From Coriobacteriales bacterium (GTDB lineage Bacteria > Actinomycetota > Coriobacteriia > Coriobacteriales > UBA8131): DNA of 34,759 nucleotides. Shown here in pieces: positions 8,185 through 34,471 of the stretch (positions are counted from its first letter, which is position 1; each line of letters begins with the position of its first letter). A program made the position numbers and the translations under genes. Where the stretch lies: contig JAIRXA010000085.1 in assembly GCA_031268525.1 (NCBI GenBank), forward strand, positions 1 to 34,759, read 5' to 3'. Under the pieces are notes generated by a model that did no database searches, had not been told where the DNA came from, and saw nothing but the letters and a program-made list of their open reading frames with translations.

Positions 8185-9099
8185 CTAATCACTATAGAAA
8201 TGGTCGAAATCCACCCGCTGCCGCTCAGTCCCGTCGGTACGGATCTTGTAAAGGCTCCCGAGATCATCCCAGTTTGTGTAATATACCCAGTCGCCAACTA
8301 CGTTGATGAAGTCGCTATTGTCATCATTGAGCTTTATGCGCTCGGTCCCGTCGGTACGGATCTTGTAAAGGCCGTCATCTTCCTCGTTTCTGTAATATAC
8401 CCAGTCGCCAACTACGTTGATGAAGTTGCTACCCTCATCGTTGAGCTTTGTGCGCTCGGTACCATCGGTACGGATCTTGTAAAGGCTGCTATCATCATCC
8501 TCGTTTCTGTAATACACCCAGTCGCCAACTACGTTGATGCTGCTACTATCGTCACTGTTGAGCTTTGTGCGCTCGGTCCCGTCGGTACGGATCTTGTAAA
8601 GGCTCCAGCCATCACCAAAGTTTCTGTAATACACCCAGTCGCCAACTACGTTGATGTACGCGCTACCCCCATCGCTCAGCTTTGTGCGCTCGGTCCCATC
8701 GGTACGGATCTTGTAAAGGCTGCTATCATCATCCTCGTTTCTGTAATATACCCAGTCGTCGCTTTGGGCGACCATGCCAAGGTTTGTGAGATTTCCCACG
8801 GTGTTGCCTGCCTTGACGGCACCATCCAAAACACTGAAAAAGACAGTAAGGGCGATTGCCCCCATCAACAAGACAGCAGCGACTGCAGCACCGATGATGA
8901 TCGGTGTGCGTCGAGACTTTTTTGCCGGAGGTCCCTGCGCACGAGCGGACACCACAGGTTGCGGCATAACGGGAGGGAGCAACGTCTGTGTCGGTACCTG
9001 CCCTGACGGTGCAGGTACCGCAGGCCCAACCGGCGTTCCGCATCCGGCGCAGAAGCGCGCGCCGTTCTCAAGCGGTAAAGCACACCTGGTGCAGTACAT
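8185..9099 (-). CDS. Zinc-ribbon, single-TM, DUF5050-like beta-propeller surface protein
   Basis: N-terminal CTRC..FCAGCG ribbon, Pro-rich linker, hydrophobic TM segment, then repeats of INVVGDWVYY..SLYKIRTDGTER. Confidence 0.85.
   Translation of the reverse strand: MYCTRCALPLENGARFCAGCGTPVGPAVPAPSGQVPTQTLLPPVMPQPVVSARAQGPPAKKSRRTPIIIGAAVAAVLLMGAIALTVFFSVLDGAVKAGNTVGNLTNLGMVAQSDDWVYYRNEDDDSSLYKIRTDGTERTKLSDGGSAYINVVGDWVYYRNFGDGWSLYKIRTDGTERTKLNSDDSSSINVVGDWVYYRNEDDDSSLYKIRTDGTERTKLNDEGSNFINVVGDWVYYRNEEDDGLYKIRTDGTERIKLNDDNSDFINVVGDWVYYTNWDDLGSLYKIRTDGTERQRVDFDHFYSD
8225..8760. repeat. About 5 near-identical 114-117 bp coding tandem repeats
   Basis: Anchor CCCAGTCG at 8286, 8400, 8517, 8634 and 8751, giving spacings of 114/117/117/117. 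Confidence 0.92.
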
Positions 9100-9265: not shown

Positions 9266-9958
9266 ATGGGACATTGCGAACACGGATTGTCCGGCAGATG
9301 TGCTACGGCGGGTACAGACTGCTATCAGAGCGGTGCTGTGCTTTCAAAAGCGAATATGACACTCGCCGATTTTAACCGCATAGCCGAACAATGCGTAGGA
9401 CGGGTAAACCAGTTCGCCCTCGGCGGCAGAGGCGACCCCGATTTGCACGAGAACTTTGAGCAGGTATTGAAGATGTGCCGCGACAACAACATCGTCCCGA
9501 ACTACACCACATCCGGTTACAGGCTTTCTGATTCGGCGATAGCGGCAAGCAAGAAATACTGCGGAGCTGTGGCGGTCAGTTGGTATCGCACCGAATACAC
9601 CATCAACGCGATAGAACGGTTTTTGTCCGCCGACGTGAAGACCAACATCAGCTGCTACATAGATTCCGAGATGAGCATGTCGCCGTGCAGTTTCGACCGA
9701 AGCGGAAAGTATGCTGTTTCATTGAAAGACACGACTATAGCCGAAGTGTGGCAATCACCGCAGTTTGAGTGTTTCCGTGAGCATTTGCGAAACGCCTGCC
9801 CCCAATGCGAAAGCCGAAGTCTGTGTATGGGCGGCTGCCCGATTGTGCCGGAGATAGTATTGTGTGCAAATCATCCCCACCAGAACAAGCTGGCGATGCA
9901 CTGTGGGCAAGGTAGAAGTGGCGAGGTAGACGTGGCGTCTGAACCTGCCAAATTTTAG
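9266..9958 (+). pseudogene. Radical SAM/SPASM protein, apparently N-truncated and internally deleted
   Basis: CX7CX6C motif, ALGGRGDP motif and SPASM-like CPQC..C..GGC. The ORF begins only 3 residues before the first Cys, and KTNI joins SCYI directly where the rest of the barrel would be expected. Confidence 0.6.
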
Positions 9959-10000: not shown

Positions 10001-11164
10001 TCACAAGGCCCTCCCCTGAGATGCAACTATCAGTCCATCAGCACTGTGGCCAGGGAATTCGAGGCCCTCATTGCTCATCAATCCGATCAGTTTTTCCAAT
10101 CGCGAGAAGATGCGGTGACTGGCCCTCAGGCGCTTGTCAACAAACTCTTGCCTGAGTGCTCGCTGCCCCGCGCGGGAAGGATTCATTACTTGAAGCAGCA
10201 TGGCCTCAACGTCAGCTTTCTCCAAAAGTATGATCTCCATGCTTTCCCTAACGCTGTTGAGGATTGAAACGCTACTCTGCGAGTCGCTCAACATCCTCAT
10301 TTGCCTCGACAGATACAGGCAGCGTCTTGTCAGCTCATTAAGGTCGACCATCGCTTTTGTGGACCATCGGGAAAAGTAATCCCGCTCATCGTACGGCTCA
10401 CTCAGCAGACTACAGTGCATGAGCTGAAGGGCTCTCTCAATCCATTTGTGATGCGAAGCCAAAAGAGCTGAGATGAGCTGCGTTTCTTTCACAACATCAA
10501 GCGAGTTCATCGCAACATGAAGCTGATAGTATTCAGCGAACTCTCCGGTAATGGCCGCTCTCCCAGAGGACTCCTCAAACACCCCGCCAGGCAGGAAATA
10601 CCATTTCTCCCAGTATGGCGGTATCCAGAAGCAGGTGCATTTTGACTGCTCGCTACAAAAGTGCAGCAGGTGACGGGATTGTTCCACAGAGGGTTGCAGA
10701 GCCTCGACAATCTCATCCGTCAGTCTCTCAATGCGCTCAAGCCTTATCTCCCTGACCTCGGCTTTCCTCGATCTACGCGTTTCTGCGTAGCGACAATATC
10801 TGGAAAAGGAACGCGTCCACGGAGCAACTGGCAAGCCAAGTGCGTGCAGGGATTCTCTTCTGACCAGTTCCGCTTCGGCCTCATCTGGGATACGTTGATA
10901 CGAGTTGGCATGAAGCTGCGAATGAGCGTATTCGTGTATCAGAATACCCAGAAGCTCCAGTGAGCAGCGCCTGTAACGCAGAAGGATCAAGGGCACGTCC
11001 TCTCTTGGACGAAAGCAACCCAGAGTCGACGAGCCAGTCTTCTTGTCCTTCGGAGCCTCTCCATTGAAATACGCCTTGATGCCGAAGTGCTCCTCCAGCG
11101 GTGCGATGTACAGCCGCCGGAATTCAGCGCGGGGCATGCTCCCGGTGGCAGGATATTCTTTCAT
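10001..11164 (-). CDS. HExxH zinc metallopeptidase-domain protein (ImmA/IrrE-like) with an unknown helical C-terminus
   Basis: ILIHEYAHSQLH followed by DEAEAE; ATGA overlap with the upstream gene. Confidence 0.65.
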   Translation of the reverse strand: MKEYPATGSMPRAEFRRLYIAPLEEHFGIKAYFNGEAPKDKKTGSSTLGCFRPREDVPLILLRYRRCSLELLGILIHEYAHSQLHANSYQRIPDEAEAELVRRESLHALGLPVAPWTRSFSRYCRYAETRRSRKAEVREIRLERIERLTDEIVEALQPSVEQSRHLLHFCSEQSKCTCFWIPPYWEKWYFLPGGVFEESSGRAAITGEFAEYYQLHVAMNSLDVVKETQLISALLASHHKWIERALQLMHCSLLSEPYDERDYFSRWSTKAMVDLNELTRRCLYLSRQMRMLSDSQSSVSILNSVRESMEIILLEKADVEAMLLQVMNPSRAGQRALRQEFVDKRLRASHRIFSRLEKLIGLMSNEGLEFPGHSADGLIVASQGRAL

Positions 11165-11811
11165 AGCACCATCCCCTGTGTGATCTTGTCAACCGTGCCG
11201 TCGAGCGAGTACCTCAGTTCATACTTTTCGGCTTCAGAGATACTGAGGAGGAATAGCTTATCGGTAGTCGGCTCGCAGCCTGCAACTCCATATTCAGCGT
11301 TACCGTCATTTACGAAGGTTGAGGAGGCAATGATTGATTTCTCGTTAAAAGCAAAGCTTCCATCTATAAAGTCAGTGTTGAGCCATCTTCGCAGACTGCA
11401 GTCACTCCATGAGGCGTCTTCGATAGTATCATTATACTGACGGCTGCTGACATAATCTTGGGTAATAATGAGAGCTTTGCCTTCCCTGATGTCTAAAACT
11501 AACCAGTTATGTCCACCAAATCCAGATACAACTTCGCCTATAGATAGACCAGTAGGTATCCCAAGCACTTCTGAGTTTGTTGTTGATACGAGTGATGTTC
11601 CAGAAAAAGAACCTACTACATTCTCTTCCTGCTGTTCTGTGCCCAACGCGCTCCTCAGTAAAGCAACAGTGATTGCTACGGCTGCAAAAATCCCTATAAA
11701 AACGAGGATACGCCTGGCGTGAGAGTGTGCGGGTTTTGTCCTTGAGTGATTGCCACTGGCGGTTCTTTTGGTTCTGCTCTGTATGTCTGGTTTTACTTTG
11801 CCGTAAGCCAT
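11161..11811 (-). CDS. Membrane-anchored DUF6273-domain protein, C-terminally shortened
   Basis: TM helix, then FGGHNWLVLD..KALII..SWSDCSLRRWLN..F..TDKLFLLSISEAEKY. Confidence 0.75.
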   Translation of the reverse strand: MAYGKVKPDIQSRTKRTASGNHSRTKPAHSHARRILVFIGIFAAVAITVALLRSALGTEQQEENVVGSFSGTSLVSTTNSEVLGIPTGLSIGEVVSGFGGHNWLVLDIREGKALIITQDYVSSRQYNDTIEDASWSDCSLRRWLNTDFIDGSFAFNEKSIIASSTFVNDGNAEYGVAGCEPTTDKLFLLSISEAEKYELRYSLDGTVDKITQGMVL

Positions 11812-11895
11812 TGCCGTCCATTATCCTCTCGTCACGTTGGCATTGAGTCTTTACATAACTAGAGCCACAGCGTTGTCCATAGGTGCCACATGAGA

Positions 11896-11941
11896 GAGCT
11901 GCGAGGGACACCCTTATTGAGCAGGATGTCCCTCTCAGCTC
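11896..11941 (-). terminator. Long hairpin just downstream of the micro-ORF cluster
   Basis: GAGCTGcGAGGGACAcCCT-tattgagc-AGGaTGTCCCTCtCAGCTC, 8 bp after the stop of the 30-aa ORF. Confidence 0.6.
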
Positions 11942-11949
11942 ATTCCCGC

Positions 11950-12042
11950 CTATACTGCTTCTCCGCAGCTCGGACATTCCTCGACACAACCCGCCTTGTC
12001 ATCGAACGTATAGCCGCAATGCGGGCATCTTACCTTTGCCAT
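11950..12042 (-). CDS. 30-aa zinc-ribbon microprotein (CPHC...CPSC)
   Basis: My translation: MAKVRCPHCGYTFDDKAGCVEECPSCGEAV*. Strong RBS GGGAGGTGA just upstream. Not in the ORF track. Confidence 0.8.
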   Translation of the reverse strand: MAKVRCPHCGYTFDDKAGCVEECPSCGEAV

Positions 12043-12086
12043 GAACTCACCTCCCTCGTAATCATCACCTTTCCAATGCCTGCCGC

Positions 12087-12236
12087 CTATCGCTCGCGGC
12101 CGGTTCCCTTGCATCGCGGGCACTTACCGCTACCACTACAACCGCCGCACGGGCTGTTGAGATGAGTCCGCCCTGATCCCTTGCAACCCTGGCACTTACC
12201 TGACCCGCCGCATACCCAGCACTTCTCCTTAGACAT
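12087..12236 (-). CDS. 49-aa stand-alone DnaJ-type (CxxCxGxG)x4 zinc-finger microprotein
   Basis: My translation: MSKEKCWVCGGSGKCQGCKGSGRTHLNSPCGGCSGSGKCPRCKGTGRER*. RBS GGGAGGTG. Not in the ORF track. Confidence 0.88.
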   Translation of the reverse strand: MSKEKCWVCGGSGKCQGCKGSGRTHLNSPCGGCSGSGKCPRCKGTGRER

Positions 12237-12396
12237 AACACACCTCCCTTCTTCTGGTCGTAGCCGTCAGAATGTCAAGCATGTGGTCGTACCAATAGTC
12301 TCCAGGCACCTTCTCAGTTTCCTGTATAGGCTCCTGCAGGAGAAACGCTTGATGGTTACGCCTGGGGATGTCGTACCTGTTGCTGTGTTCAGTCAT
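12229..12396 (-). CDS. 55-aa hypothetical microprotein
   Basis: AAGGAG RBS before ATG 12396 (MTEHSNRYDIP...); its stop overlaps the start of the 49-aa zinc-finger ORF. Confidence 0.45.
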   Translation of the reverse strand: MTEHSNRYDIPRRNHQAFLLQEPIQETEKVPGDYWYDHMLDILTATTRRREVCYV

Positions 12397-12496
12397 AGCT
12401 CCTTCTTTCTTCTGGGTGTATCTGACATCAATCATTAAACACGGCTGTAGCGAGGGGCCGGAATTCGTAATTACCGCATCCGAGAGCGCCGGGGCA

Positions 12497-13066
12497 TCAA
12501 TACAAGCTCCCGAGCACAAGAACAGAGACAGCTACAGAGACAGAGATCTTCAACAGCTTGCCAAGAAAGCACAGCGTAATAAAGCGCCAGAAACTCACCT
12601 TTAAGTAGCCCGAGGCAAACCCCACGATGTCGAAGAGAGGCAGAGGAATAGCTGCCATGGTAAAGATCACCCGTTGTCTCCCGCCCTTTAGCAGGTCGAT
12701 GAGCTTGCATAACACCTTGTTCTTGGGGGTCTCGATTTGCTTTACGTTTCTGCCAGCCATCCCCGCTAGGTAGCCCATCGTTTCGCCAAGCGTGCTTCCG
12801 GCTGCGCCCATCAGGGCTACGGCAACCGGGTTGAGGAAGGTTGCTGCGCTCATAACGACAGCAAGGCTGGGCGCAGGGGCAAATACTGTGGCATTACACA
12901 GAAAGCAAAGGGTTAATACACCGAAATAGCCCAAGCCTTCGAAGTAGGTCAGCCTATCTTGAAAGACATACGCGAGCACGGACCCAGCGACAATCAATAC
13001 GATGAACGCAATGTTGGCCGCAAGGAGCCATGGGTTTTTCCTGGGATTACCGGTAGCAACATCCAT
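12497..13066 (-). CDS. DedA/VTT (SNARE-associated) family membrane protein
   Basis: GSTLGETMGYLAG and AIPLPLFDIVGFASG...F...FLGKLLK motifs; multiple TM segments; 1 bp after the kinase stop. Confidence 0.85.
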   Translation of the reverse strand: MDVATGNPRKNPWLLAANIAFIVLIVAGSVLAYVFQDRLTYFEGLGYFGVLTLCFLCNATVFAPAPSLAVVMSAATFLNPVAVALMGAAGSTLGETMGYLAGMAGRNVKQIETPKNKVLCKLIDLLKGGRQRVIFTMAAIPLPLFDIVGFASGYLKVSFWRFITLCFLGKLLKISVSVAVSVLVLGSLY

Positions 13067-13067
13067 G

Positions 13068-14708
13068 TCAGCCGCCGGACAGCACGCCGATAAGAATCGC
13101 CAAGATGACGACTATGCCGGCTATCATCACGGCGGCCGAGATAACCAACGCAAGCAGCAGCACTACAACCGCAGATGCAAAGGGGGCAACTACCGTCAGG
13201 AGCCCTGAGAGCCCGTAGTCCCTTAGCGCAGGCGGTCTTTGAGCGTATGCCAGTCCATATACAACTGGCAGGAGAAAGCAGGCAACGACCGACAGTATGG
13301 CGTAAACCGTTGTTGCCACAGGATCGGCAATACTCTTTCCCATAATGCCAATGAAAAGTTGGCGGACTACTGGCACAAAGTACAACGATGACAACACCGC
13401 CACTAAAAGGGAGCCGCCCATGGTGATACCCCAATATGCCTCCGGCCTTTCCCACCAGTCGGTTATCAGTGCTGGATTTTCCGCTTGCATGTTCTGTCTG
13501 GCAACCCGCCACAGCGAGCGTGGAGACTTAAGCAAAGATGGCCTGGCAACAACACCGCTGAAAGCGGTAGGGGTTGCAACCGTCGTCTTGTTTGTGGCTT
13601 GGTTTGCCGCAGGGTTTGGGGCGTGCAGGTTAATAGGTGGCTTGGGGATGAAGCTGCTAGCCTTGCTCTTGTGTCTCTTAAGCGCCGCGCAATGAGGGCA
13701 GCTGTTCAGGCCGTTGAAATAGTAATGATGCTTGTCTTTGCTGCACTGAACCCGGCAGGACTTCATGCTTCGTCCGAGCGCTTCGTGCCAGTCCGTGGCA
13801 TTAGGGCGCAGGGAGGGACTGCCGTAGCCTTTATCGAACGCAAGCGTGAACAACCTTGCTATGTCCGGATGAGTTTCACTCAGGCTGGGGGTGCGGGCAG
13901 CGAGTGGTTTGTATCCCGCTTTGAAACAGTATTCGTTGCGCTCGACGGAGTCGTTTGCCTTGCCAGGAGCGACTGATGATAGGCGCTTGCCTACCTGTAG
14001 GCCATTAAAGGGTGGTGTTCCGTTCATGGTGAGCAGGAAAATGTGCTCTGCCAGCGCAAATACATCGGTCTCTTTGGTGAAGGAGCTACCGGTTTTCCGG
14101 AACAGCTCCCCATACCCTCCTTTAAGCCCTTTGACCCTTGCCAGCAGTTCAGGCGCTACGAATCCGTCGTAGGCGACGGGGCAGGGGTAGGTGTGCCCTG
14201 TGGCATGGTCGGTGAACTGGAAAGAGTTGGTGTCCAGTATCGCCACCTCGCAGGTCTTGGGATTGACCCTGATATTATTGGGATTAAAGTCTCCAATCAC
14301 ATATTCGCTCGCATGCAGTCCAGCCACAGTGATGGCGATGTTGCGGCAGATTGTCAACCTGTAACGTAGGTCCAACGCCGCATACTTGTTGGGCGGATAG
14401 GGATGCAGCTCATTTATATCCACCCCTGATGCGAACTCCTTCATGGAAAAGCCTGCAAAGGAGCCGTTCTGGTGGTAAAACAGCTCCTGTGGCCAGGCCA
14501 AATGCTTAAGTATGCTTCCCGACGGCGGGCGTGTGATCATGTACCGAATCTTAGATTCGAGATCCGGTGCGAGGCTCTGTGGCTTGAATACTTTGGCAAG
14601 TACACCGCTCTGGCCCTTGATGCGGTGTATACAGGCCTCGCCTTCGCTGGCTATAGGTGGCTCAACAAGTTCGCATCTGCCTGAGCCGTTCTGGCTGAAC
14701 ACATGCAT
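13068..14708 (-). CDS. TerY-P-type Ser/Thr kinase with Zn-finger and C-terminal membrane domain
   Basis: EGEACIH, LAKVF, LAWP, VIGDFNPNNI, ILDTNSF, APEL, TDVFALA; then C..HHYY..CPHC; then about 4 TM helices. Confidence 0.88.
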   Translation of the reverse strand: MHVFSQNGSGRCELVEPPIASEGEACIHRIKGQSGVLAKVFKPQSLAPDLESKIRYMITRPPSGSILKHLAWPQELFYHQNGSFAGFSMKEFASGVDINELHPYPPNKYAALDLRYRLTICRNIAITVAGLHASEYVIGDFNPNNIRVNPKTCEVAILDTNSFQFTDHATGHTYPCPVAYDGFVAPELLARVKGLKGGYGELFRKTGSSFTKETDVFALAEHIFLLTMNGTPPFNGLQVGKRLSSVAPGKANDSVERNEYCFKAGYKPLAARTPSLSETHPDIARLFTLAFDKGYGSPSLRPNATDWHEALGRSMKSCRVQCSKDKHHYYFNGLNSCPHCAALKRHKSKASSFIPKPPINLHAPNPAANQATNKTTVATPTAFSGVVARPSLLKSPRSLWRVARQNMQAENPALITDWWERPEAYWGITMGGSLLVAVLSSLYFVPVVRQLFIGIMGKSIADPVATTVYAILSVVACFLLPVVYGLAYAQRPPALRDYGLSGLLTVVAPFASAVVVLLLALVISAAVMIAGIVVILAILIGVLSGG

Positions 14709-14726: not shown

Positions 14727-15680
14727 TTACTCATGCGACTCAGGGTCTTCCAAGACCTGTGCCGCATCTTTGTTTTCATTGGGTAAGCTTGTTGGATGTG
14801 ATCCTGAATCGGTGCCTGTGACATCAGCATCATTCCAGCTCGGATACAGCTCGCAATCGTGCTTACGGTGCCACTCGCTCACCAGCCTCTTCCAGTCGGG
14901 TTCCCTGTAGTACGCATCCTCAAGACAGGTTGCCCTCGCGTCACCTACGATAACCACTACGGTTACGTCATCGTTGTTGGTTGCCTCGTCGGGCACCTGC
15001 TCGATAGAGCGTTTCACCCGGATGTTTCCCTCTTTGTTGGTGATGTTCAGCTTGTCAGCGGGGTAGTCTAAGAGGAAGCGTAGCGGTGGGATGTAAAGTC
15101 CGTCGCTGAAATCTTCAAGCAGCGGATTACAGACAAAGCCCAGAAAACCGTCGCTGGTCAGGAGAACCGATGACACCGGCTTTGGGTGTTTGCCAAAGAC
15201 CCACCAATCCTCGCCAAAGCTCAATGGGTATACACGCCCGTACTCGTCGTTTTGCTCTTCGGTGACCTTGGCATAGTGACCGTCTGCTTGCAGGGCGATG
15301 ATGCCACTGTCGCCAGACTGGCCGAAGTACAGGTCTTTGCCGATAAGCACGGCAGTGGCGAGGGTCGTGTCGCAGTCGCGTAGGTCGTATCCGCGCACTC
15401 TGGCAAGAAGTTCCACGGCTTCCCTGGCGCAACAATAGGCATCCTTGAGGGACTTGAACATCATCTCGATACTCGGCGTAGAGCCTTTGAGGTGCTCTGC
15501 CAGGAACACCATCGTTACAAATGAAGCCAGCTTCGACGCTTCGTCGGAGTGCGCCGCACTTCCCAGACCGTCGGCAACCACCCCAATGGCGATCCCATCA
15601 TCTGTAACGAACTCAGCGAGGCTGTCCTGGCATACGGGGTGGGAAGGACCGCCTTTGATCGCCTTGAATATGCGTGGCAT
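14727..15680 (-). CDS. PP2C-family phosphatase of the TerY-P triad
   Basis: GPSH..CQDS, VADGLGSA, SGDSG, LLTSDG and DDVT motifs. Start set to ATG 15680 (AGGAGG RBS). Confidence 0.9.
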   Translation of the reverse strand: MPRIFKAIKGGPSHPVCQDSLAEFVTDDGIAIGVVADGLGSAAHSDEASKLASFVTMVFLAEHLKGSTPSIEMMFKSLKDAYCCAREAVELLARVRGYDLRDCDTTLATAVLIGKDLYFGQSGDSGIIALQADGHYAKVTEEQNDEYGRVYPLSFGEDWWVFGKHPKPVSSVLLTSDGFLGFVCNPLLEDFSDGLYIPPLRFLLDYPADKLNITNKEGNIRVKRSIEQVPDEATNNDDVTVVVIVGDARATCLEDAYYREPDWKRLVSEWHRKHDCELYPSWNDADVTGTDSGSHPTSLPNENKDAAQVLEDPESHE

Positions 15681-15690
15681 AGGAGCCCTC

Positions 15691-16422
15691 CTAATCGTTA
15701 AGCCAGTCGCAGGTGTCCTGCTCAAAGTTGTCCGGCTGTACTGCGGTCTTTACCTTGTCGCCAGGGCTAGACTCGGATACAGCGCGCATCGACTTATGTA
15801 CCCAATCGAATAATTTGGTAAAGTCATAGTCAGTCAGCCGCGTCACTTTCTCCCCAGCCAGCTTGTGAAGCGTCTCAGAACTGTAGCTGCCGCAGCCAAA
15901 TGCCAGCAGCTTCAGCTTGCCGTCCGCCTCCATCTGCCTCACAACCTCGGCGGCTTCGTCTACAGGCGTGTTGGGATAGCCGTCCGTAATGAGCAACACC
16001 CAAGGCTTATAGGGTCGGATGCCCTGACTGAGGTAACGGCGGTACTGGTTATCCACTTCGGTGAGGGCCGCCTTGACAGCCTTGTTCATTTCGGTGCTAC
16101 CCTCTGGTCGCAAGGTGTGATCAGCCATGGCAGTCACCGGCGCAAACGGCTGGATGTACTTGTTGGCATCGCTGAAGGTGATAATACCAACATCAAGCAC
16201 ACTGGCAGTCTTCGGGTCCTTGAGCATGTCGCGTTTGAATCGAGCAATTCCCTTGTTCAGCTCGTCGATCGGGGTACCAGACATAGACCCCGACACGTCC
16301 ACAAGTAGCATCAAGGCCTCGCGGTTCAGTGTCGACATCTCGATTGCCGTGCTTGGCCCGTCCCGAAAAAACCCGTCGTCGTGACTGTCGGAGCCTTGAT
16401 TTTTCCTGCCGAAAATAGACAT
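15691..16422 (-). CDS. terY: TerY-type vWA domain protein
   Basis: MIDAS motif LLVDVSGSMSG, then PIDELNKG, YKPWVLLITDGYP, FTKLFDWVHKSM; adjacent to PP2C and kinase genes. Confidence 0.9.
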   Translation of the reverse strand: MSIFGRKNQGSDSHDDGFFRDGPSTAIEMSTLNREALMLLVDVSGSMSGTPIDELNKGIARFKRDMLKDPKTASVLDVGIITFSDANKYIQPFAPVTAMADHTLRPEGSTEMNKAVKAALTEVDNQYRRYLSQGIRPYKPWVLLITDGYPNTPVDEAAEVVRQMEADGKLKLLAFGCGSYSSETLHKLAGEKVTRLTDYDFTKLFDWVHKSMRAVSESSPGDKVKTAVQPDNFEQDTCDWLND

Positions 16423-16748
16423 AGTGATACCTCTTTCTGTCTTGGTTGGTGGCGTCCCGTCACCTTGTCATTTCTCATACTGAAGCCTTCAGTGTATGTG
16501 TCGGAATTTTCAACTTGAGTATTCATGGCTCCACGAATTCGTTTCGGGCGAAACCGTAGGCCTATAAAGGACAGAGGAGTTCGATAGGGATTTCCATCAT
16601 CCGTTCGTGCATGCTCTGAGTGAGCTTGATTGAGTGTAACGTGCGTCGCCGACGACTATCGAGAATTCCGTTCACTCGTCCCGGGCAGATAAGCTTTTCT
16701 CATTTATTGATGGGCGTACTGCGCCCTGATTCGAGAAAGGTGAACGCA

Positions 16749-19700
16749 ATGGCAATCACTGAGATCGAACTGATACCACTTGACGACCGGTCTTCGGGGG
16801 GTGCAGCAGTTAATGCTGCCTTACTTGGTCCCAGACAAGCTCTGACCTTATCGGTGCGAAACCTGGGCAAGGTAGATCCTGAGTATATCGCCCGGCTCTG
16901 TGGTGTTTCCACCGAGGATGCCATCGACAGGCTCAGTGGCCATATCTATCAAAACCCTGAAACCTGGCAAGGCGATGCAATGCAGGGCTGGGAGCTTGCC
17001 GGGGGATACCTCTCGGGCAACGTCTACCTCAAACTGGACGCCGCTTTGAGAGCCCGCAGCAACTCGAACGCCCACGGACGTTTTGAGGCCAACATTCAGG
17101 CGCTCAAGGAGGTGCTGCCAGCCGCTATACCGTTTGCCAACATCTACTACGGCCTCGGCACGCCGTGGATCAAAGAGAGCATCTACAACGCCTTTGTAAA
17201 GGAGGTGCTGTTCGGTATCAGCGGTGGGGGTCGACTAGATCTGGTCACATACGACAAGGCCAAGAACAAGTGGTGTATCCGCTCCAAGCGCAAGTTGTCC
17301 AAGTCAACACGCGGCGATTTTGGCACCACCTATCAGGGTTGCGGTACTCTTGAGCTTTTAGAGGATCGCATGAATCTCAAGTCCACAGTTGTTAAGCATG
17401 AGATCAGCGATCCTGCCGCCAAGGGCGGGACTCGCAGGGTCACAGACGAGAAGGCCACCGCTTTTACTCAACGCCAGCAGGAACGCCTTGGAGAAGCATT
17501 CGTCACATGGGTAGGTAATAACGAGGCTGTTCAGTGCAGCATCGCATCCAGTTTTAACGCTCGTTTCGGCTACATGCTCCGCAAGAGGTTCAGCGGCAGT
17601 TATCTTGATTTCCCAGGTCTTGCAGAGGGTATCGAGCTGTTCCAGTGTCAAAGGGATGCGATCGCCCGCATCCTGCTCACCCCCAACACTCTGCTTGCCC
17701 ATGAGGTAGGTGTCGGCAAGACTTACACCATGATCGTCTCTGGCATGCTGATGCGTCAGATGGGAATCTCCAGCAAAAATCTCTATGCCGTACCAAACGA
17801 TATTGTGGGGCAGTGGGAAGACTTCTTCCGTACCCTCTACCCAGAGGCAGCCATACTCGTCATCACTCCTGACGTGATGGTGCCCACACTTAGGAACGAG
17901 ACACTTAAGGAGGCCTGCACCGGCGACTACGATGCCATCATAATGTCGCACAGCGTATTTGAGCGCATCCCCCTGCGCCGCCCGCCAAAGCCTGTCGAGC
18001 GACGTGGCAGTAGCAAGAAGGCGGAGTCCTGCAAGCCCTACAAGCATGTCTTGTACTGGTTTGAAGACTTGGGCGTAAACACGCTGTTCATTGATGAGGT
18101 GCATAAGTATAAGAACATTCCGCTGCACAGCCGCATCAACAACGTATATGGCCTCAACATAACCGGCGCCGACACGTCTGCTGACGTTTTGGCCAAGGTG
18201 CGCTGTGTACAGAAAATGAACGGTGGCGGAGGCGTGGTGCTCGCCACTGGCACCCCCATCACCAATTCTCTCGCAGACGTGTTCGCCTGGCAGTCGATGT
18301 GTCAGCCCTCACTGCTCAAAATGCTCAACATAGACACCTTTGACAAGTGGGTGTCCACCTTCGCTGAGCGCACTGAGGAATACGAGATAACCCTCGCTGG
18401 CAAGCCGCGTCTGACCACACGCTTCCGGTGCTTTTGCAACCTCCCTGAGCTAGCGTCTCTCATGAGCCAGTTCACCGACTTTCACCGGCTCGACATGCGG
18501 GATGACCTGCCAAAACTTGACAAGTATAGCGAGCATGTTGTGGCTATGAATGAATATCAGGAGTGGGTATTCGAGGATTTCTCGGGCCGCATCGAGAAGA
18601 TCAGGTGCAGGCAGGTGCATCCCAAGGACGACAACATGCTGATGGTCTACACTGATGCCCGCAAGACCTCTCTGGATGTGCGTCTGTTCGACACCGCTTT
18701 CGTGAGCAAAATGGAGTGCAAGGTGCAACGCTGCGCTCGACAGATCTACGAGATCTACCTCGCGGGTGCGGATGGGCTACTCACACAACTCGTATTCTGT
18801 GACACGTCCACACCCAAGAATAGTTTTAACATATTCGACGAGTTGACCAACGAGTTGCTTGCGCTGGGAATCCCGCGCAGCGAGATCGCTTTTGTGCAAG
18901 ACAACACCACCACCGAGCAGTATAAAAAGGCATTGGTCGCCGAGATGAACTCGGGACGGGTGCGCATCTTGGTAGGCTCGACCGCCAAGGGCGGCACAGG
19001 CTTCAACGTCCAGGAGCGGCTGGTTGCCATACATCATCTCGACACACCCTGGCGCCCCGCAGACATGATCCAGCGCGAGGGGCGTGGCCTGCGCCCAGGC
19101 AACACCAATAAGCAGCTCTTTATTTACCGCTACCTCACAGAAAAGAGCTTTGATGCCTACCAGTATCAGATATTGGAGACCAAACAGGAGCTGATAGCCC
19201 AGTTCATGTCAGGGTCCTTCCCTTTCCGCGAAGTGGAGGATTTGGGAGCGGCAGTGCTGGACTACGGCCAGGTAAAAGCGCTTTTGGAGGATAACCCCCG
19301 CATCAAGGAGCGCCTGGACATCGCGAACGACATAACGCGGCTGCGTCTCCTGCTCAAGGGCGACGAGGAGAACCGTTTGGCGCTCAGAAGTGAACTGGCG
19401 GCCATACCAGCCAAGATCGCCGAGATGGACGCGCATCTGGCCGCGGCAAGTGCCGATAGTCTAACCGCCGCAGCCGCGCCCGCTCCGCTTGCAACACAAG
19501 AGGACAGGAAGCGGCACGGGGCGTACATCCTCTGGGCGGCAGAGGATATCGCTTGCGGCGAGCGCCGGGAGCTGGGTTCCTACCGAGGATTCGGCCTAAG
19601 CATTGCCAAGGAAGCCGAGGGCGAAGACCTCGCAGTGTACGCCGTACTCGACGGGCAAGGGCAGTACAGGGTCAAGCTGGGTGAGAGTGCCGCAGGCGCT

Positions 19701-19895
19701 ATAACCCGTCTGGATAACCGTCTCTCCCGCCTCGCCAAGGACATTGAGGACATGAAAGTCGACAGGGAGGCGCTCATCAATCGTCGCGACGACATCGCCA
19801 ATTCGCTGGGTACCCCCGAGAGCTACAGCTCTCAGATAAAGGCCAAACAGCTCAAGCTGGACGAGCTGGATACACAGATACAGGAAGGTGCGTGA
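16749..19895 (+). CDS. SNF2-like SF2 helicase (helicase part of DarB-like methylase-helicase proteins) with C-terminal coiled coil
   Basis: LLAHEVGVGKT, FIDEVHKYKN, LATGTP, HHLDTPWRPADMIQREGRGLRPGN. Start set to ATG 16749 (GAAAGGTGA RBS). Confidence 0.88.
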   Translation: MAITEIELIPLDDRSSGGAAVNAALLGPRQALTLSVRNLGKVDPEYIARLCGVSTEDAIDRLSGHIYQNPETWQGDAMQGWELAGGYLSGNVYLKLDAALRARSNSNAHGRFEANIQALKEVLPAAIPFANIYYGLGTPWIKESIYNAFVKEVLFGISGGGRLDLVTYDKAKNKWCIRSKRKLSKSTRGDFGTTYQGCGTLELLEDRMNLKSTVVKHEISDPAAKGGTRRVTDEKATAFTQRQQERLGEAFVTWVGNNEAVQCSIASSFNARFGYMLRKRFSGSYLDFPGLAEGIELFQCQRDAIARILLTPNTLLAHEVGVGKTYTMIVSGMLMRQMGISSKNLYAVPNDIVGQWEDFFRTLYPEAAILVITPDVMVPTLRNETLKEACTGDYDAIIMSHSVFERIPLRRPPKPVERRGSSKKAESCKPYKHVLYWFEDLGVNTLFIDEVHKYKNIPLHSRINNVYGLNITGADTSADVLAKVRCVQKMNGGGGVVLATGTPITNSLADVFAWQSMCQPSLLKMLNIDTFDKWVSTFAERTEEYEITLAGKPRLTTRFRCFCNLPELASLMSQFTDFHRLDMRDDLPKLDKYSEHVVAMNEYQEWVFEDFSGRIEKIRCRQVHPKDDNMLMVYTDARKTSLDVRLFDTAFVSKMECKVQRCARQIYEIYLAGADGLLTQLVFCDTSTPKNSFNIFDELTNELLALGIPRSEIAFVQDNTTTEQYKKALVAEMNSGRVRILVGSTAKGGTGFNVQERLVAIHHLDTPWRPADMIQREGRGLRPGNTNKQLFIYRYLTEKSFDAYQYQILETKQELIAQFMSGSFPFREVEDLGAAVLDYGQVKALLEDNPRIKERLDIANDITRLRLLLKGDEENRLALRSELAAIPAKIAEMDAHLAAASADSLTAAAAPAPLATQEDRKRHGAYILWAAEDIACGERRELGSYRGFGLSIAKEAEGEDLAVYAVLDGQGQYRVKLGESAAGAITRLDNRLSRLAKDIEDMKVDREALINRRDDIANSLGTPESYSSQIKAKQLKLDELDTQIQEGA

Positions 19896-21004
19896 TCCAG
19901 ATGAAGAAGGATGCCAATACAGGCGTTGCCCTGCAGGCAGCCATCAGTTCGGTCGCTGACCTCTATGTTGGCGCTCTCAATCAGGGGCTCTCGCCATCCA
20001 ACTTACCTCCGTTCATGCTTTGGGGGCCGCCGGGGGTCGGCAAGTCGCAGGGCGTGAGGCAGATCGCGCTCGACGTTGGGAAGCGCACTGGCAGGAAGGC
20101 CGTAGTCACCGACGTGCGTCTGATGCTCTTCAATCCCGTAGACCTGCGTGGCATACCGGTGGCCAATGCCGAGCGTACGCTAGCGGTTTGGCTCAAGCCG
20201 GAGGTTTTTGATATGGACGCCGACGACGGCATCGTCAACGTCCTGTTTTTGGACGAGATCAGTGCCGCACCACCGTCCGTGCAGGCCACGGCCTACCAGA
20301 TCACCTTGGATCGCCGCATCGGCGAACATAGGCTGCCAGATAACTGCATCGTCATAGCAGCAGGCAACCGTGTGACCGACCGCTCGGTGGCCTACAAAAT
20401 GCCCAAGGCACTCGCGAACCGGCTTTGCCACATCGACGTGCGTGCGGACCACAGGACGTGGAAGGCTTGGGCTGTGCGATCTGGCATAGACCCCCGCATC
20501 CTGGGCTTCTTGGAGTTTCAGCCAGACCGGCTCATGCGTTTTGACACTGCGACAGACGACCATGCCTTCGCCACGCCACGCTCTTGGGAGATGCTCAGCC
20601 GCGTGCTCGACTGCCTCACTGGCGATGACAGCGGGCTATTTCTACTGACGTCGGGCTGTGTTGGCGAGGGGGTGGCTACGGAGTTCCTCACCTGGATTGA
20701 TGTTTATGATAGTCTGCCCGACATTGCTGCCATCTTTGACGGCAAGGATGTTGAGGTGCCCAAATCGACTGACGCCTTATATGCGCTCGTTTCCTCGATG
20801 GTTGCCTACGCCAGGGACAACCTGGATGATGAATGGCGCATCGAACGCTCAATAGCCTACGGGACACGCCTGCCAGTGGATTATACGGTTGTACTCTTCC
20901 GCGATTACCAATCTATCAGTGAGCAGTCTAAGCGTTTGCTCATGCGCTCAGAAGCTCTCAACGACTGGAGCATAGCACACGGGAGATTCTTTAATGATAT
21001 CTGA
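19892..21004 (+). CDS. MoxR-like AAA+ ATPase
   Basis: Walker A WGPPGVGKS, Walker B LFLDE, AAGNR, ALANR and TPRSW; GTGA overlap with the helicase stop. Confidence 0.92.
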   Translation: MIQMKKDANTGVALQAAISSVADLYVGALNQGLSPSNLPPFMLWGPPGVGKSQGVRQIALDVGKRTGRKAVVTDVRLMLFNPVDLRGIPVANAERTLAVWLKPEVFDMDADDGIVNVLFLDEISAAPPSVQATAYQITLDRRIGEHRLPDNCIVIAAGNRVTDRSVAYKMPKALANRLCHIDVRADHRTWKAWAVRSGIDPRILGFLEFQPDRLMRFDTATDDHAFATPRSWEMLSRVLDCLTGDDSGLFLLTSGCVGEGVATEFLTWIDVYDSLPDIAAIFDGKDVEVPKSTDALYALVSSMVAYARDNLDDEWRIERSIAYGTRLPVDYTVVLFRDYQSISEQSKRLLMRSEALNDWSIAHGRFFNDI

Positions 21005-22280
21005 TGACGGATACGCGCGCAGAGCTGCGGATCGGCTCCTGCGCTCGCGCACGCGCCTGCTGCTCGACCATGGTTTCTTTGGACTACTGCTGATGCACAT
21101 GCACTTCGCCCTGGACGATACATTCGGCATGGCGGCGACAGACGGCGACTTCATCTACTTCTCCCCAGAGTTTCTGGCAAACATCAGCGACGAGGAGTTG
21201 GACTTCATCATGATGCACGAGGTGATGCATACAGCGCTTGCCCACACCTCGCGTGTCAGCGAGCGGGACAGTTTCGCCTTCAACGTGGCCTGCGACATCG
21301 TGGTTAACTCTATCATCATCAAGGAGATGGGAAGGGGGTCGTTCTCGCTCGAGAAGTATGGCCCAGCCATGCACCTGGCGCCCAGTGGCAGGGAGGGTTA
21401 TCTCTACTCCGCTGAGGAGGTCTACGAGATGCTTGGTAAATACAAATTACAGTGCGACCAGGCCTCTGATGGAGCAGGAGGAGGCACAGCGAAAGGCAAA
21501 GGTGCGGCCAGTGGCAGGCGTGAAGCGAACGGCAGAGGTACGGCCAGTGGCAGGCGTGAAACGAACGACAGAGGCGAGATACTTGATGACCACTCGCGCT
21601 GGGGCAAGCATGCTGGTGACGACAGGCATCAGGCGACTTGGCGGCAGCGCATCCTGGCTGCTGCAAAGGCTATGGAGCGCAGGGAACGGGATTGCGGCAG
21701 GCTCCCGCTGTTCGCTGAGAGGCTTGTCAGGGAGCTTGCGGAGTCAAAGGTGGACTGGCGCTCCGTACTTCAGAATTTCATTCAGGAGGAGGTCTTCGAC
21801 TACGGCTTCCAGCCACCGGACAAGCGCTACCAGGATGGCGACTTCCTGCTGCCAGACTTCAACGATAAGCGCAACGTGCTACACAACGTCATGTTCTACG
21901 TCGATGCTTCCGGGTCGGTATCCAACCAGGAACTTGTCGAAGCCATGAGCGAGGTCGTCGGGGCGGTCGAGCAGTTCGGCGGCTGCCTGACTGGCTACGT
22001 CTCCTTCTTTGACGCGAAGGTTGGCAAGCCCCTGCCATTCGATGATGTGTCCGACCTTAACAGAGCTGCCGTGTGCGGCGGTGGCGGCACCAGCTTCCAG
22101 ACCGTGTTCGATAGCCTCCAAGGTTTTGCCAAAGACAACCCCGTCTCCTGCGCCATAGTACTCACAGATGGCTATGCGCCCTACCCTGCAGAGAGTGCAG
22201 CGGCAGATATACCGATACTCTGGCTCATCAACAACGAGAAGAAGACCCCTCCTTGGGGACTGGTAGTGAGGATGGATTAA
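20994..22280 (+). CDS. DUF2201-type metallopeptidase plus vWA-like domain protein
   Basis: AATDG, MHEVMH, NVACD, DDHSRW, VDASGSV, GGGGTSF and LTDGY motifs; typical partner of this AAA family. Confidence 0.9.
   Translation: MISDDGYARRAADRLLRSRTRLLLDHGFFGLLLMHMHFALDDTFGMAATDGDFIYFSPEFLANISDEELDFIMMHEVMHTALAHTSRVSERDSFAFNVACDIVVNSIIIKEMGRGSFSLEKYGPAMHLAPSGREGYLYSAEEVYEMLGKYKLQCDQASDGAGGGTAKGKGAASGRREANGRGTASGRRETNDRGEILDDHSRWGKHAGDDRHQATWRQRILAAAKAMERRERDCGRLPLFAERLVRELAESKVDWRSVLQNFIQEEVFDYGFQPPDKRYQDGDFLLPDFNDKRNVLHNVMFYVDASGSVSNQELVEAMSEVVGAVEQFGGCLTGYVSFFDAKVGKPLPFDDVSDLNRAAVCGGGGTSFQTVFDSLQGFAKDNPVSCAIVLTDGYAPYPAESAAADIPILWLINNEKKTPPWGLVVRMD
21501..21572. repeat. 36-bp tandem duplication in the DUF2201 linker
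   Basis: GGTGCGGCCAGTGGCAGGCGTGAAGCGAACGGCAGA / GGTACGGCCAGTGGCAGGCGTGAAACGAACGACAGA. Confidence 0.9.
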
Positions 22281-22302
22281 GCAGACAGATGAAGAACTCG
22301 GA

Positions 22303-22791
22303 TTACTCTACTGTTTTGCTGGGCTTCGCCAGCACATCATTGAGGCCAATGTAGCCTCTGGAGAAAGCCAAGAGCTTGAGACTGTATGTATCCATCAGCT
22401 TGTTTGAGTAGGAGACGATCTCATCAATTATCTCAGCTGTAACTACCATGTCCTTATAGCGTGAACTGTTGCGATAGATAATCTCACGCATCTCCGTCAC
22501 CACCGAAAACGAGCCACTGAGCAAAGTCGTGTTGATGAGACAGCACGCCCACATGGCTTCTTCCAGTTTTTCTGTCGGGAGGCTGAATGGCAGGAAGCTA
22601 GCGACGGTGATCCGCTCGCCTTTTCCGTTTGTTTCTATAAAGAAGCAGGCGTCCAGGTCTTTACCTCTGATGTTGTAGTGGATGGTGAGCTCTTTGTCGT
22701 CGGCCTCATAATGCCAGCCGCGTTTGTCAAAATAACTCTTAATCGTCGCGTACGTTGCTGTTGCGTTTGATGTCTTGGTCTTGTCTCCCAT
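22303..22791 (-). CDS. YbjN / T3SS-chaperone-fold protein
   Basis: YFDKRGWHY...CLINTTLLSGSFSV...EIIYR pattern. Start set to ATG 22791 (GGAGG RBS). Confidence 0.7.
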   Translation of the reverse strand: MGDKTKTSNATATYATIKSYFDKRGWHYEADDKELTIHYNIRGKDLDACFFIETNGKGERITVASFLPFSLPTEKLEEAMWACCLINTTLLSGSFSVVTEMREIIYRNSSRYKDMVVTAEIIDEIVSYSNKLMDTYSLKLLAFSRGYIGLNDVLAKPSKTVE

Positions 22792-22793
22792 GG

Positions 22794-23777
22794 TTAATCC
22801 TCCCGAGTATTCATCCAAAGGCCGATCAGTCCTTTGGTGTCTATTTCGCCTTTGTTCAACGCTTCGAAGTGAGGGTAGAGATCATCCACTGTGCGAAGCG
22901 TGCTGTAGAGCATCACACCAAACAGCTTGTTCCCTGGTAGGCTGCTACGGTAGTAGGCGGAGGAAACATAGTCCAGCCTGTCACGCTCTGGGTCAAAAAT
23001 AAAGCATCCGACCGACAGATACTGGTTTATTTCGTTTATGCATCTTAGGAATTCGCTGCCTTGGGCTGCGTCGATAGCAAGTATTACCTTTGCGACTATT
23101 CGCAGACATCCAGACTGAGGAATTACCCTGAAACAAACAGGCACTCTCGTGCTCCTGAACTTGATAGCTGTGGTAATGGTGCGTTTTTCATCATCGCTGG
23201 AGTACAGCAATTCCTCATTGTCAAGAAAAGCGCAGAGTTTGCCAAAAATCAATTCAGCCTGCCCCAACTCATCCAAGCCGTCCATGTCAGCTCGCTCCAA
23301 GAGTTTGCGCCGCGCGGCATCTTCTGAAGCAATCTTCTCAAGTATTGCGGCACTGCGCTCCGTCAACTCCTTCTTAATCTCGCCGAAGACAGCAGCTACC
23401 ACCATGCGATAGTCCGGGCAATTTCTCGCAAGCCACATCATTGCGCCGAACTCGCTCATTATGGCCTCCGAATCCAAGCTCTGGCCATGCGAGGCTCTGT
23501 TCTCGTAGAAGCGCTCGAGCGTCTGACGGTTCTCGGGTATGTCGAGAGGGAAGTTACGACTCAGCCATCCGCGCATTATCTCGGTGTCTTTGTCTACAAA
23601 CGCCCCAAACTCATCGATTATCTCATCGCTCAGGCCTTCGGTTATCTTTTTTCCAACGCGCATCTCCAAATCGGCATATAGGTCCGAAATGAACCGAGTC
23701 TTCCGTTTTTCCGGCATCGAGCCAAGCCCTATCTCTTCGAGAAAGTCGTTGTCTAGTTTGAGCTTATCCATTATCAT
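22794..23777 (-). CDS. DUF5663-like N-terminal domain fused to a YbjN-like domain
   Basis: N-terminus KLDNDFLEEIGLG..LEMRVG..EGLSD..DEFGAFVD..SEFGAMMWL..PDYR.VV..EIKKE. C-terminus FLDNEELLY..INEINQYLSVGCFIFD. Confidence 0.72.
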   Translation of the reverse strand: MIMDKLKLDNDFLEEIGLGSMPEKRKTRFISDLYADLEMRVGKKITEGLSDEIIDEFGAFVDKDTEIMRGWLSRNFPLDIPENRQTLERFYENRASHGQSLDSEAIMSEFGAMMWLARNCPDYRMVVAAVFGEIKKELTERSAAILEKIASEDAARRKLLERADMDGLDELGQAELIFGKLCAFLDNEELLYSSDDEKRTITTAIKFRSTRVPVCFRVIPQSGCLRIVAKVILAIDAAQGSEFLRCINEINQYLSVGCFIFDPERDRLDYVSSAYYRSSLPGNKLFGVMLYSTLRTVDDLYPHFEALNKGEIDTKGLIGLWMNTRED

Positions 23778-25582: not shown

Positions 25583-25768
25583 TGCGACGGAATTTCTGAT
25601 GCTTTTCTGCCATGTACCTGCTTATCTCGATAATTCGGCTATACTATTCCATTGAAGGCAAGCACACGGTCATGCATGTAGCATTTTCATGTTTTCACGT
25701 CTGGTGCTTTCGGAATGTAGATGAGTTAAACGAATTGAAGAAGGCGTACCAATCGGAGGGCCGGGGAA

Positions 25769-29300: not shown

Positions 29301-29306
29301 AAGCCT

Positions 29307-30938: not shown

Positions 30939-31429
30939 CCAAGCAGTATTGCTGAAATAATCGGATGTTCAAGGCTAAGAAGGTTGGCGATTTCCACCCT
31001 TGCCTCCAGCACGTCTCCAACCCACAGGCTTTTTAGCCCAAAGCCTGTTGCTGCAAGAAGCGCATTTTCAATCGCGGCGCCAATTGAAAGCAGGTCTGCT
31101 GGATGCGAGTCCTTGCCCACTCCTGTGGTTTGAGAGTCGCATGCTATCAACACAACAGGGGCCTGTACTATTGCATCTGCACTTTTCTCTACCCCATCGC
31201 GAATAGAACTCGCATTCGTAGGTGTCCGTGCTGCTTCATAGAGAATATGTGCGATTGCAACCTTAATCGACTGATCAGTTATTACCACAAACGACCAGGG
31301 CTTCCTGTCTTTGGCAGATGGTGCCTTGTCGGCAAACTCGATAATGCTTTTGATACTACGATTATCTAGACTCCTTGAGTTAAATCTACGTGTGCTTTTG
31401 CGAGTGGCAATGGCGTCAAAAACGCTCAT
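30929..31429 (-). CDS. Nitroreductase family protein
   Basis: IATRKSTRRF, APSAKDRKPW and AAIENALLAATGFGLKSLW. Start is ATG 31429 or the TTG at 31480. Confidence 0.92.
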   Translation of the reverse strand: MSVFDAIATRKSTRRFNSRSLDNRSIKSIIEFADKAPSAKDRKPWSFVVITDQSIKVAIAHILYEAARTPTNASSIRDGVEKSADAIVQAPVVLIACDSQTTGVGKDSHPADLLSIGAAIENALLAATGFGLKSLWVGDVLEARVEIANLLSLEHPIISAILLGYR

Positions 31430-31476
31430 GTCAGAAGATTGGTCTCGCTCGCTATCATTTTTGTCGCATGATGTCT

Positions 31477-34470: not shown

Positions 34471-34471
34471 T

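Follow-up and report, generated by a model that had tools for sequence, protein, structure and literature searches.

The window analysed here is a 34,759-nt stretch of DNA from a Coriobacteriales bacterium (NCBI assembly GCA_031268525.1, contig JAIRXA010000085.1, positions 1 to 34,759). On its minus strand, in an apparent annotation gap 3' of a DedA gene, lie three small open reading frames (ORFs), which we call ORF A, ORF B and ORF C. Our analysis suggested, with moderate confidence, that the gap holds a small unannotated cassette of microproteins, made up of a DnaJ-type zinc finger (ORF B), a coupled partner (ORF A) and a zinc ribbon (ORF C), and that this cassette is accessory and not a component of the neighbouring TerY-P system. 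Judging from its motif content and its conservation, ORF B is certainly a real coding gene, conserved and patchily distributed. The gap is real as regards annotation, because the ORF B product is missing from the protein collection. The ORF A product of the window is present there, and the gene caller's own version of it (P0002) is a form of 68 amino acids (aa) that starts from an upstream ATG. The elements of the cluster, with their Shine-Dalgarno (SD) sequences, are as follows.

ORF A, 12229-12396, minus strand: 55 aa, no known domain
ORF B, 12087-12236, minus strand: 49 aa, stand-alone DnaJ-type zinc finger with four CxxCxGxG motifs, eight Cys and no Asp
ORF C, 11950-12042, minus strand: 30 aa, knuckle pair (CPHCG...CPSCG plus Cys19) of a minimal zinc-ribbon or rubredoxin-like kind
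SD-like AAGGAG of ORF A, 12399-12404, minus strand: spacer to the ATG of 2 nt, unusually short
SD GGGAGGTG of ORF B, 12241-12248, minus strand: 4 nt before the ATG, within the 3' end of ORF A
SD GGGAGGTGA of ORF C, 12047-12055, minus strand: 4 nt before the ATG
Hairpin, 11896-11941, minus strand: 18 pairs with one bulge, starting 8 nt past the stop of ORF C

A first-pass annotation of this DNA had described three co-oriented small ORFs of 55, 49 and 30 aa in the gap, a ribosome-binding site (RBS) before each of them, four perfect CxxCxGxG motifs in the second, a CPHCG...CPSCG pair in the third and a long hairpin at the end of the cluster. All of these were recovered, the motifs in the translations and the three RBSs at the coordinates above, that of ORF A with a spacer of just 2 nt. 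The frames of ORF A and ORF B overlap by 8 nt: the TAA of ORF A (12229-12231) and the ATG of ORF B (12234-12236) lie together in the string ATGTCTAA, and the last codons of ORF A form the SD and the ATG of ORF B. The distance from the DedA gene to ORF A is 100 nt. A promoter and terminator scan of this interval gave nothing convincing, and co-transcription of the cluster with the DedA gene is possible. At the other end, the hairpin is unique in the genome and folds with -41 kcal/mol (91-nt stretch; z = -4.83, equalled by none of 200 shuffles). It is not a canonical intrinsic terminator, because no U-tract follows it, and it was not picked up by the terminator scan. Possible roles are stabilisation, processing and non-canonical termination. 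An Rfam search of 11700-12600 returned a chance-level miRNA match only (E 0.97), and the RNA folds at the ORF B and ORF C SD sites did not differ from those of shuffled sequences.

ORF B consists of its four motifs and little else. Its Cys residues are located at positions 6, 9, 15, 18, 30, 33, 39 and 42, each motif is a perfect CxxCxGxG, and a single Lys separates motifs 1 and 2 as well as motifs 3 and 4. When 301 genomes of the order were searched with a profile, a 51-aa homologue (E 4.5e-15) was detected in a genome of the same family, G143 (contig C58, 2061-2216). The two genes share 70% of their amino acids and 62% of their nucleotides, with a dN of 0.28. Identity at codon positions 1, 2 and 3 is 72, 77 and 36%, so the synonymous sites are saturated and the protein has been kept. 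As judged from these substitutions, ORF B is under purifying selection. A word-indexed search of 5.8 billion proteins added P0001, a 49-aa protein 80% identical to ORF B that is recorded by JGI from one contig of 1411 bp. The linker GSGR-x-x-LN-x-PCGGC is common to the three close members of the family. P0001 keeps motifs 2 and 3 intact but lacks one Cys each in motif 1 (the second) and motif 4 (the first). In the DnaJ topology, a V-shaped hairpin fold, motifs 1 and 4 together form one zinc site, and motifs 2 and 3 a second. The losses in P0001, a single sequence, fit the shared zinc site of motifs 1 and 4. One zinc site may be dispensable, or this copy may be decaying or mis-sequenced.

The distribution of ORF B is patchy. 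Relatives were found in 2 of 34 genomes of the family (E <= 1e-7), and, among 401 genomes sampled from the phylum (E <= 1e-6), in the window's own alone. The DNA of the region gave no match in 40 relatives and was present in 1 of 41 genomes, again the window's own, and the cluster has no paralogue within the genome except DnaJ. Among 25 metagenome loci that matched ORF B, 19 carry the match in long frames (189-764 aa; DnaJ and large proteins of CxxCxGxG repeats) and 6 in frames of 70-112 aa. The viral contigs yielded one partial match of 14 residues, inside a 216-aa ORF without a Pfam family. Two side observations concern similar proteins. Another family of the order encodes a small stand-alone CxxCxGxG protein (L073, G095:C2, 6304-6534), which lies in a frame of at most 76 aa, reaches 24.6 bits against DUF7895, adjoins a UDP-GlcNAc 2-epimerase gene and is a more distant match to ORF B. 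The metagenome locus L023 (9926-12215) encodes a pair of DnaJ-type zinc-finger proteins (111 and 125 aa) without a J-domain, each of which passes PF00684 as well as the anti-TRAP model. Their neighbours are AAA_5, Hsp20 and Cdc48-like genes, which places them beside chaperone-type ATPases.

A chance origin of the cluster is unlikely, as the first-pass annotation had held: the motif count of ORF B is matched only by DnaJ, and the CPxCG pair was found twice in the genome and never in its reverse. Motifs were counted in the six-frame translation of the whole 1.98-Mb assembly (77.8% complete; 3.96 million residues). CxxCxGxG occurs in 37 stop-to-stop segments, and only DnaJ and ORF B contain more than one motif, four each. 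The two segments with the CPxCG...CPxCG pair are ORF C and a 182-aa frame. The arrangement of GGAGGTG, a spacer of 3-8 nt and an ATG is present at 61 sites, 31 of which open ORFs of at least 100 aa, versus 21 sites in the reversed genome with none opening such an ORF. In this genome, the SD signal in front of ORF B and ORF C genuinely marks gene starts. For GGAGGTG-led ORFs of 25-49 aa the counts are 5 real versus 4 reversed, and within this class the SD alone does not discriminate. By codon-usage likelihood, the frame of ORF A scores best of the six.

For ORF A, a phmmer search over 1.84 billion representatives gave five matches at E <= 0.001, among them the window's own 68-aa product P0002. 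Another, P0004, has 55 aa, aligns to ORF A without gaps at 42% identity (E 8e-7), and has the same MT start and EVCYV end. Three long matches (284-2282 aa, each with 4-5 short matching stretches) were discounted, and the two that were read, P0003 and P0005, are visibly repetitive. P0004 and P0001 are both recorded by JGI with one contig, the longest contig being 1411 bp. P0001 begins with MSS, that is ATG-TCT-AG(Y), as expected if an upstream frame ends in ...TAT-GTC-TAG (overlap ATGTCTAG). From the matching records and this MSS start we infer that the pair of ORF A and ORF B, together with its overlap, is conserved on the 1411-bp contig. Adjacency of the two genes in a second organism is very likely. 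Searches of 401 genomes of the class, plasmids, phages and viral contigs found ORF A in the window itself only; a scan of genome contigs with the A1 alignment gave only two chance matches of 13 residues, in Betaproteobacteria, and ESM Atlas no usable match. The AlphaFold2 (AF2) model of ORF A is of low confidence (pLDDT 61), with an N-terminal half predicted to be disordered and one predicted helix at residues 31-51 that spans the conserved block. ORF A is probably a real gene.

ORF C gave only sub-threshold matches of zinc-ribbon type in Pfam, NCBIfam and PHROGs, and weak matches to zinc-finger, RNA polymerase subunit P and rubredoxin chains in a PDB sequence search. With fewer than 70 aa and two C(P)XCG motifs, it falls under the definition of the C(P)XCG micro-proteins given in passages of PMC11241148. 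Such proteins are described there from Haloferax volcanii and other prokaryotes; 9 of 14 purified ones bound zinc and 5 were zinc-free, so metal binding of ORF C is not to be assumed. ORF C differs from them in being bacterial and just 30 aa long, with no established sequence relationship. A 28-aa Cys-rich ORF of G143 could not be aligned to it, and none of the ORF B metagenome loci examined has an ORF C-like neighbour. An origin of ORF C as a split-off of the zinc ribbon of the TerY-P kinase was rejected; the kinase retains its own ribbon. The earlier view of the three ORFs as genes implied conserved homologues. These were found for ORF B (G143 and P0001) and, with one protein, for ORF A (P0004), and none was found for ORF C in G143.

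Structure comparison placed the one confident ORF B model, by weak matches, near known zinc fingers. The Foldseek neighbours were BSD2 (6ekb, E 3.2e-3, TM 0.46) and the DnaJ Cys-rich domain (1exk, E 5.7e-3, TM 0.41), and further the DNAJA2/A3 fingers and anti-TRAP (24 residues, root-mean-square deviation 0.8). The best PDB match by sequence was 1exk (E 0.39). Like the DnaJ Cys-rich domain (PF00684, 1exk), ORF B has four CxxCxGxG motifs. Unlike it, ORF B is a stand-alone protein of 49 aa without J domain or C-terminal domains, and its spacers are single Lys residues in place of the longer beta-hairpin spacers of DnaJ. The alignment with this genome's own DnaJ is gapped and reaches only 32% identity; with the different motif spacing, this led us to reject ORF B as a dnaJ fragment. 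The chloroplast proteins BSD2/ZnJ2 (6ekb), the top Foldseek match, are likewise small, with four CxxCxGxG motifs and no J domain, but they are eukaryotic plastid proteins, longer, have the known client RbcL and show no family match to ORF B at the sequence level. Anti-TRAP (PF15777; 2bx9, 3lcz) is similar in its microprotein size, its DnaJ-type knuckles and the local structural match of 24 residues. Anti-TRAP has two motifs, one Zn and a trimerisation helix. ORF B, in contrast, has four motifs, no helix in its model, no Pfam match and no trp-operon context. In passages of PMC5818400, ZnJ2 is described as a Zn-binding holdase with four CxxCxGxG motifs. Anti-TRAP appears in passages of PMC2896485 as a bacterial microprotein of ~53 aa with DnaJ-type CxxCxGxG knuckles that acts solely by binding and blocking another protein. 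Zn binding by CxxCxGxG motifs in DnaJ and anti-TRAP, and holdase activity, are also reported in passages of bioRxiv 10.1101/2024.10.02.616296.

By analogy with these proteins, ORF B would be a minimal stand-alone DnaJ-type zinc finger that holds two Zn ions, one with motifs 1 and 4 and the other with motifs 2 and 3. ORF A would be its rapidly evolving 55-aa partner, translationally coupled to ORF B through the ATGTCTAA overlap, and ORF C, 30 aa long, would be a C(P)XCG zinc ribbon served by a strong RBS of its own. Most likely, as anti-TRAP and BSD2/ZnJ2 suggest, such zinc-stabilised mini-domains would hold, inhibit or recruit another protein. The cassette as a whole would be an accessory, patchy element of a mobile or defence-island neighbourhood. 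The first-pass idea of metal-binding microproteins stands in so far as ORF B and ORF C look so by their motifs, and its support is on sequence grounds only.

Several results weigh against the cassette. ORF B is below every Pfam gathering score: it reaches 17.8 bits against DUF7895 (PF25433; cut-off 27), similar to its G143 homologue with 18.2 bits, while L005, a more distant stand-alone relative, passes at 31.9 bits. No match of ORF B to PF00684 (gathering score 32.7 bits) was obtained at E <= 0.01. Of the five AF2 models of ORF B, a single one is confident (pLDDT 79.9 versus 42-47), and all of its Foldseek matches are weak (E 3e-3 to 0.16, none <= 0.001). The Cys losses in P0001 could equally reflect relaxed constraint or a sequencing error. 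The SD spacing of ORF A is poor, and the case for ORF C as a gene comes from motif rarity and the RBS. The codon-usage score gives no support to ORF B or ORF C, in a test that is confounded by their richness in Cys and Gly and by the atypical make-up of the whole island; the neighbouring kinase and DUF6273 genes also score low. Finally, homologues of ORF A and ORF C were not found in G143, the one other genome with an ORF B homologue whose DNA was read. Because G143 has an ORF B homologue without them, the trio is not a fixed unit.

The G143 locus also raises another explanation, in which the partner of ORF B is a larger gene of the cluster's 3' side. Two genes lie there in the window.

Membrane-anchored DUF6273 protein, 11161-11811, minus strand: 216 aa (PF19789, 1.2e-16)
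HExxH protein, 10001-11164, minus strand: 387 aa, ImmA/IrrE-like as a lead only

When 18 window proteins were compared with the G143 locus by tblastn, the 387-aa HExxH protein gave the one match, to a 225-aa HExxH protein (L072:7407-8084; 30% identity over 122 aa, E 2e-11). ORF B might work with this ImmA/IrrE-like protein, possibly joined by ORF A or ORF C: on a mobile or defence element that encodes a metallopeptidase, it could regulate or inhibit the enzyme or bring substrates to it. We consider this possible but doubtful. In its favour, the N-domain of the HExxH protein turned up in 2 of the 34 genomes of the family and likewise in 2 of the 301 of the order, and these are exactly the two with ORF B. 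Both genes are on the same strand at each locus, with the HExxH gene 0.9 kb from ORF B in the window and 5.2 kb downstream in G143, and the two loci are otherwise unrelated and saturated at synonymous sites. On the other side, the co-occurrence comes from two loci of one bacterial family, kin and not independent, which may have kept the pairing from a common ancestral island without a functional link; several genes separate the HExxH gene from the ORF B homologue in G143. The peptidase label is also a language-model lead: the ESM Atlas rows named Peptidase_M78 (ImmA/IrrE) with scores of 0.86-0.89, whereas Pfam and PDB profile searches gave nothing significant. A search of the viral contigs found no copy of this HExxH domain. 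As a lead, the HExxH gene is the only larger gene seen to recur near an ORF B homologue. Atlas leads for its N-domain also include conjugative-element proteins.

The surroundings of the G143 homologue are worth describing. At L072 (G143:C58, 1750-2730) it belongs to a second micro-ORF cluster with strong SDs, consisting of a 23-aa ORF, the 28-aa Cys-rich ORF (CxxCG...CxxCxG) and the 51-aa homologue, and ending with a 151-aa protein of tandem PGTFRGGVQSQRLT-like repeats. Genes for a JAB-ThiF fusion and an AAA_2 ATPase follow 3' of this cluster, and further on those for a SpoVK-like AAA protein and a J-domain protein.

A bolder version joins the two lines of evidence. ORF A and ORF B might form a conserved, translationally coupled module of two microproteins, carried in mobile or defence islands together with a HExxH protease of ImmA/IrrE-like type. 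ORF B would then serve as a switch that depends on zinc, or as a decoy restraining either the protease or a client from phage or host. We rate this as unlikely on present grounds. To the same degree unlikely is the opposite simplification, that ORF B is the sole gene, with ORF A and ORF C arising by chance or representing a leader and a trailer that are not translated. This would explain why G143 has no homologue of either, and it agrees with the 2-nt SD spacer of ORF A and with the near-equal counts of short GGAGGTG-led ORFs (25-49 aa) in the real and reversed genomes. However, the homologue of ORF A is gapless, of the same length and with conserved ends, the CPxCG pair of ORF C is very rare, and the SD of ORF C is ideal.

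The first-pass annotation had connected the microproteins with the TerY-P system upstream. The genes concerned are these.

vWA (TerY-like) protein, 15691-16422, minus strand: PF00092, 3.3e-11
PP2C phosphatase, 14727-15725, minus strand: PF13672, 4.3e-23
TerY-P-type Ser/Thr kinase, 13068-14708, minus strand: 546 aa, zinc ribbon at aa 318-340, hydrophobic C-terminus at aa 427-546
DedA/VTT membrane protein, 12497-13066, minus strand: 189 aa, PF09335, 3.8e-14

Their assignment to a TerY-P system and DedA was borne out, with a vWA protein, a PP2C and a zinc-ribbon kinase followed by DedA. Passages of PMC11090510 describe the TerY-P triad as a vWA protein, a PP2C and a kinase with a zinc ribbon, and propose a metal-sensing phospho-switch; the three genes upstream of DedA fit this description. 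The micro-ORFs, in contrast, are not part of the triad as those passages give it, and this kinase differs in having a C-terminal membrane region, followed by DedA. It would be a membrane-anchored TerY-P variant with a DedA/VTT gene directly 3'.

As parts of the TerY-P/DedA system, the microproteins would be co-transcribed accessories, namely kinase substrates, metal or redox sensors, or adaptors. The common strand, the 100-nt gap after DedA without a convincing promoter or terminator, and the pairing of a proposed metal-sensing switch (passages of PMC11090510) with a zinc ribbon in the window kinase speak for it. Of the 301 genomes of the order, 11 encode a related kinase (E <= 1e-10), the window's own among them; the relatives are only 29-35% identical to the window kinase. 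Around each of the ten foreign loci 12 kb was fetched. None of the ten has a CxxCxGxG or CPxCG micro-ORF within ~5 kb of the kinase. Three ORFs of at most 120 aa with at least two CxxC were found (L041, L045, L046), none with CxxCxGxG or CPxCG; all are in frames overlapping larger ORFs, and the two longer ones are Arg/Pro-rich. Pfam was run on the 53 ORFs closest to the kinases, out of 88 on the same strand: a vWA protein and/or a PP2C stands beside the kinase in 7 of the 10 loci, and no VTT/DedA domain was found among the 53. A search of genome contigs by exact peptide words found no relative of the kinase, and no close relative of the exact operon was found. Linkage of the peptides to terY loci was not seen from the side of ORF B either. 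No TerY-P genes occur within the 14 kb examined near the G143 homologue, and no vWA, PP2C or kinase around the small ORF B relatives L003, L005, L017 and L023, whose neighbours are topoisomerase I/DprA, restriction-modification and Hsp20/Cdc48/AAA genes. A tie of the cluster to TerY-P, with roles as kinase substrates, sensors or adaptors, is not supported by these comparisons; we regard this explanation as quite unlikely.

A last explanation, that the Cys-rich peptides are precursors of peptides made by the ribosome and modified after translation (RiPPs), of cysimiditide, SCIFF/ranthipeptide or lanthipeptide type, can be put aside as very improbable: CxxCxGxG peptides are known as cysimiditide precursors, a radical-SAM/SPASM gene lies at 9266-9958 and the kinase is faintly similar to the LanL/LanKC kinase domain (E 2e-4 to 5e-4), but the radical-SAM/SPASM gene is convergent and ~2 kb away, NCBIfam shows no SCIFF or other precursor family (none for ORF A and ORF B, a sub-threshold zinc ribbon only for ORF C), and four perfect zinc-knuckle motifs together with a G143 locus free of such enzymes point to a folded zinc protein. 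Passages of bioRxiv 10.1101/2024.10.02.616296 describe the cysimiditide precursor as having two CxxCxGxG motifs that flank a modified Asp, next to a gene for a PIMT-type methyltransferase. ORF B was rejected as such a precursor; it has no Asp, and Pfam scans of 28 window proteins found no methyltransferase. The radical-SAM/SPASM protein has 230 aa, short for its family, is convergent with the HExxH gene and may be truncated or unusually compact.

Beyond the TerY-P genes, the right half of the window (16620-34500) resembles a defence or conflict island and has the following genes.

16620-19895: SNF2 helicase with DrmD/BrxH-like matches
19892-21004: MoxR-type AAA protein
20994-22280: DUF2201 VWA-like metallopeptidase
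22303-23777: two YbjN-domain proteins
23774-25582: mad8-like / TrwB-like ATPase
27780-29300 and 29307-30938: two kinases with PD-T4-6 / MkoA-like matches
31477-34500: nSTAND1-pentapeptide protein

On the left side, a DUF5050 protein (8185-9099) has an N-terminal zinc-ribbon segment at aa 2-24 (PF13240, 23.5 bits, cut-off 25), another small zinc module of the same neighbourhood.

In conclusion, the proposed cassette of a DnaJ-type finger, a coupled partner and a zinc ribbon is a clean case of real genes that annotation missed. Stand-alone DnaJ-type and C(P)XCG zinc-finger microproteins are a class already known, and for specialists the surprise is limited for this reason. The guilt-by-association link to TerY-P is corrected, and attention shifts to the gene pair of ORF A and ORF B and, as a lead, to the recurring HExxH neighbour. 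ORF B may be near the smallest natural DnaJ-type double zinc knuckle, and it would then be a handy model for zinc-finger folding and for the function of bacterial microproteins. If the module of ORF A, ORF B and the protease should be true, it would be a regulator of a conflict system at the level of microproteins, of a kind not yet described.

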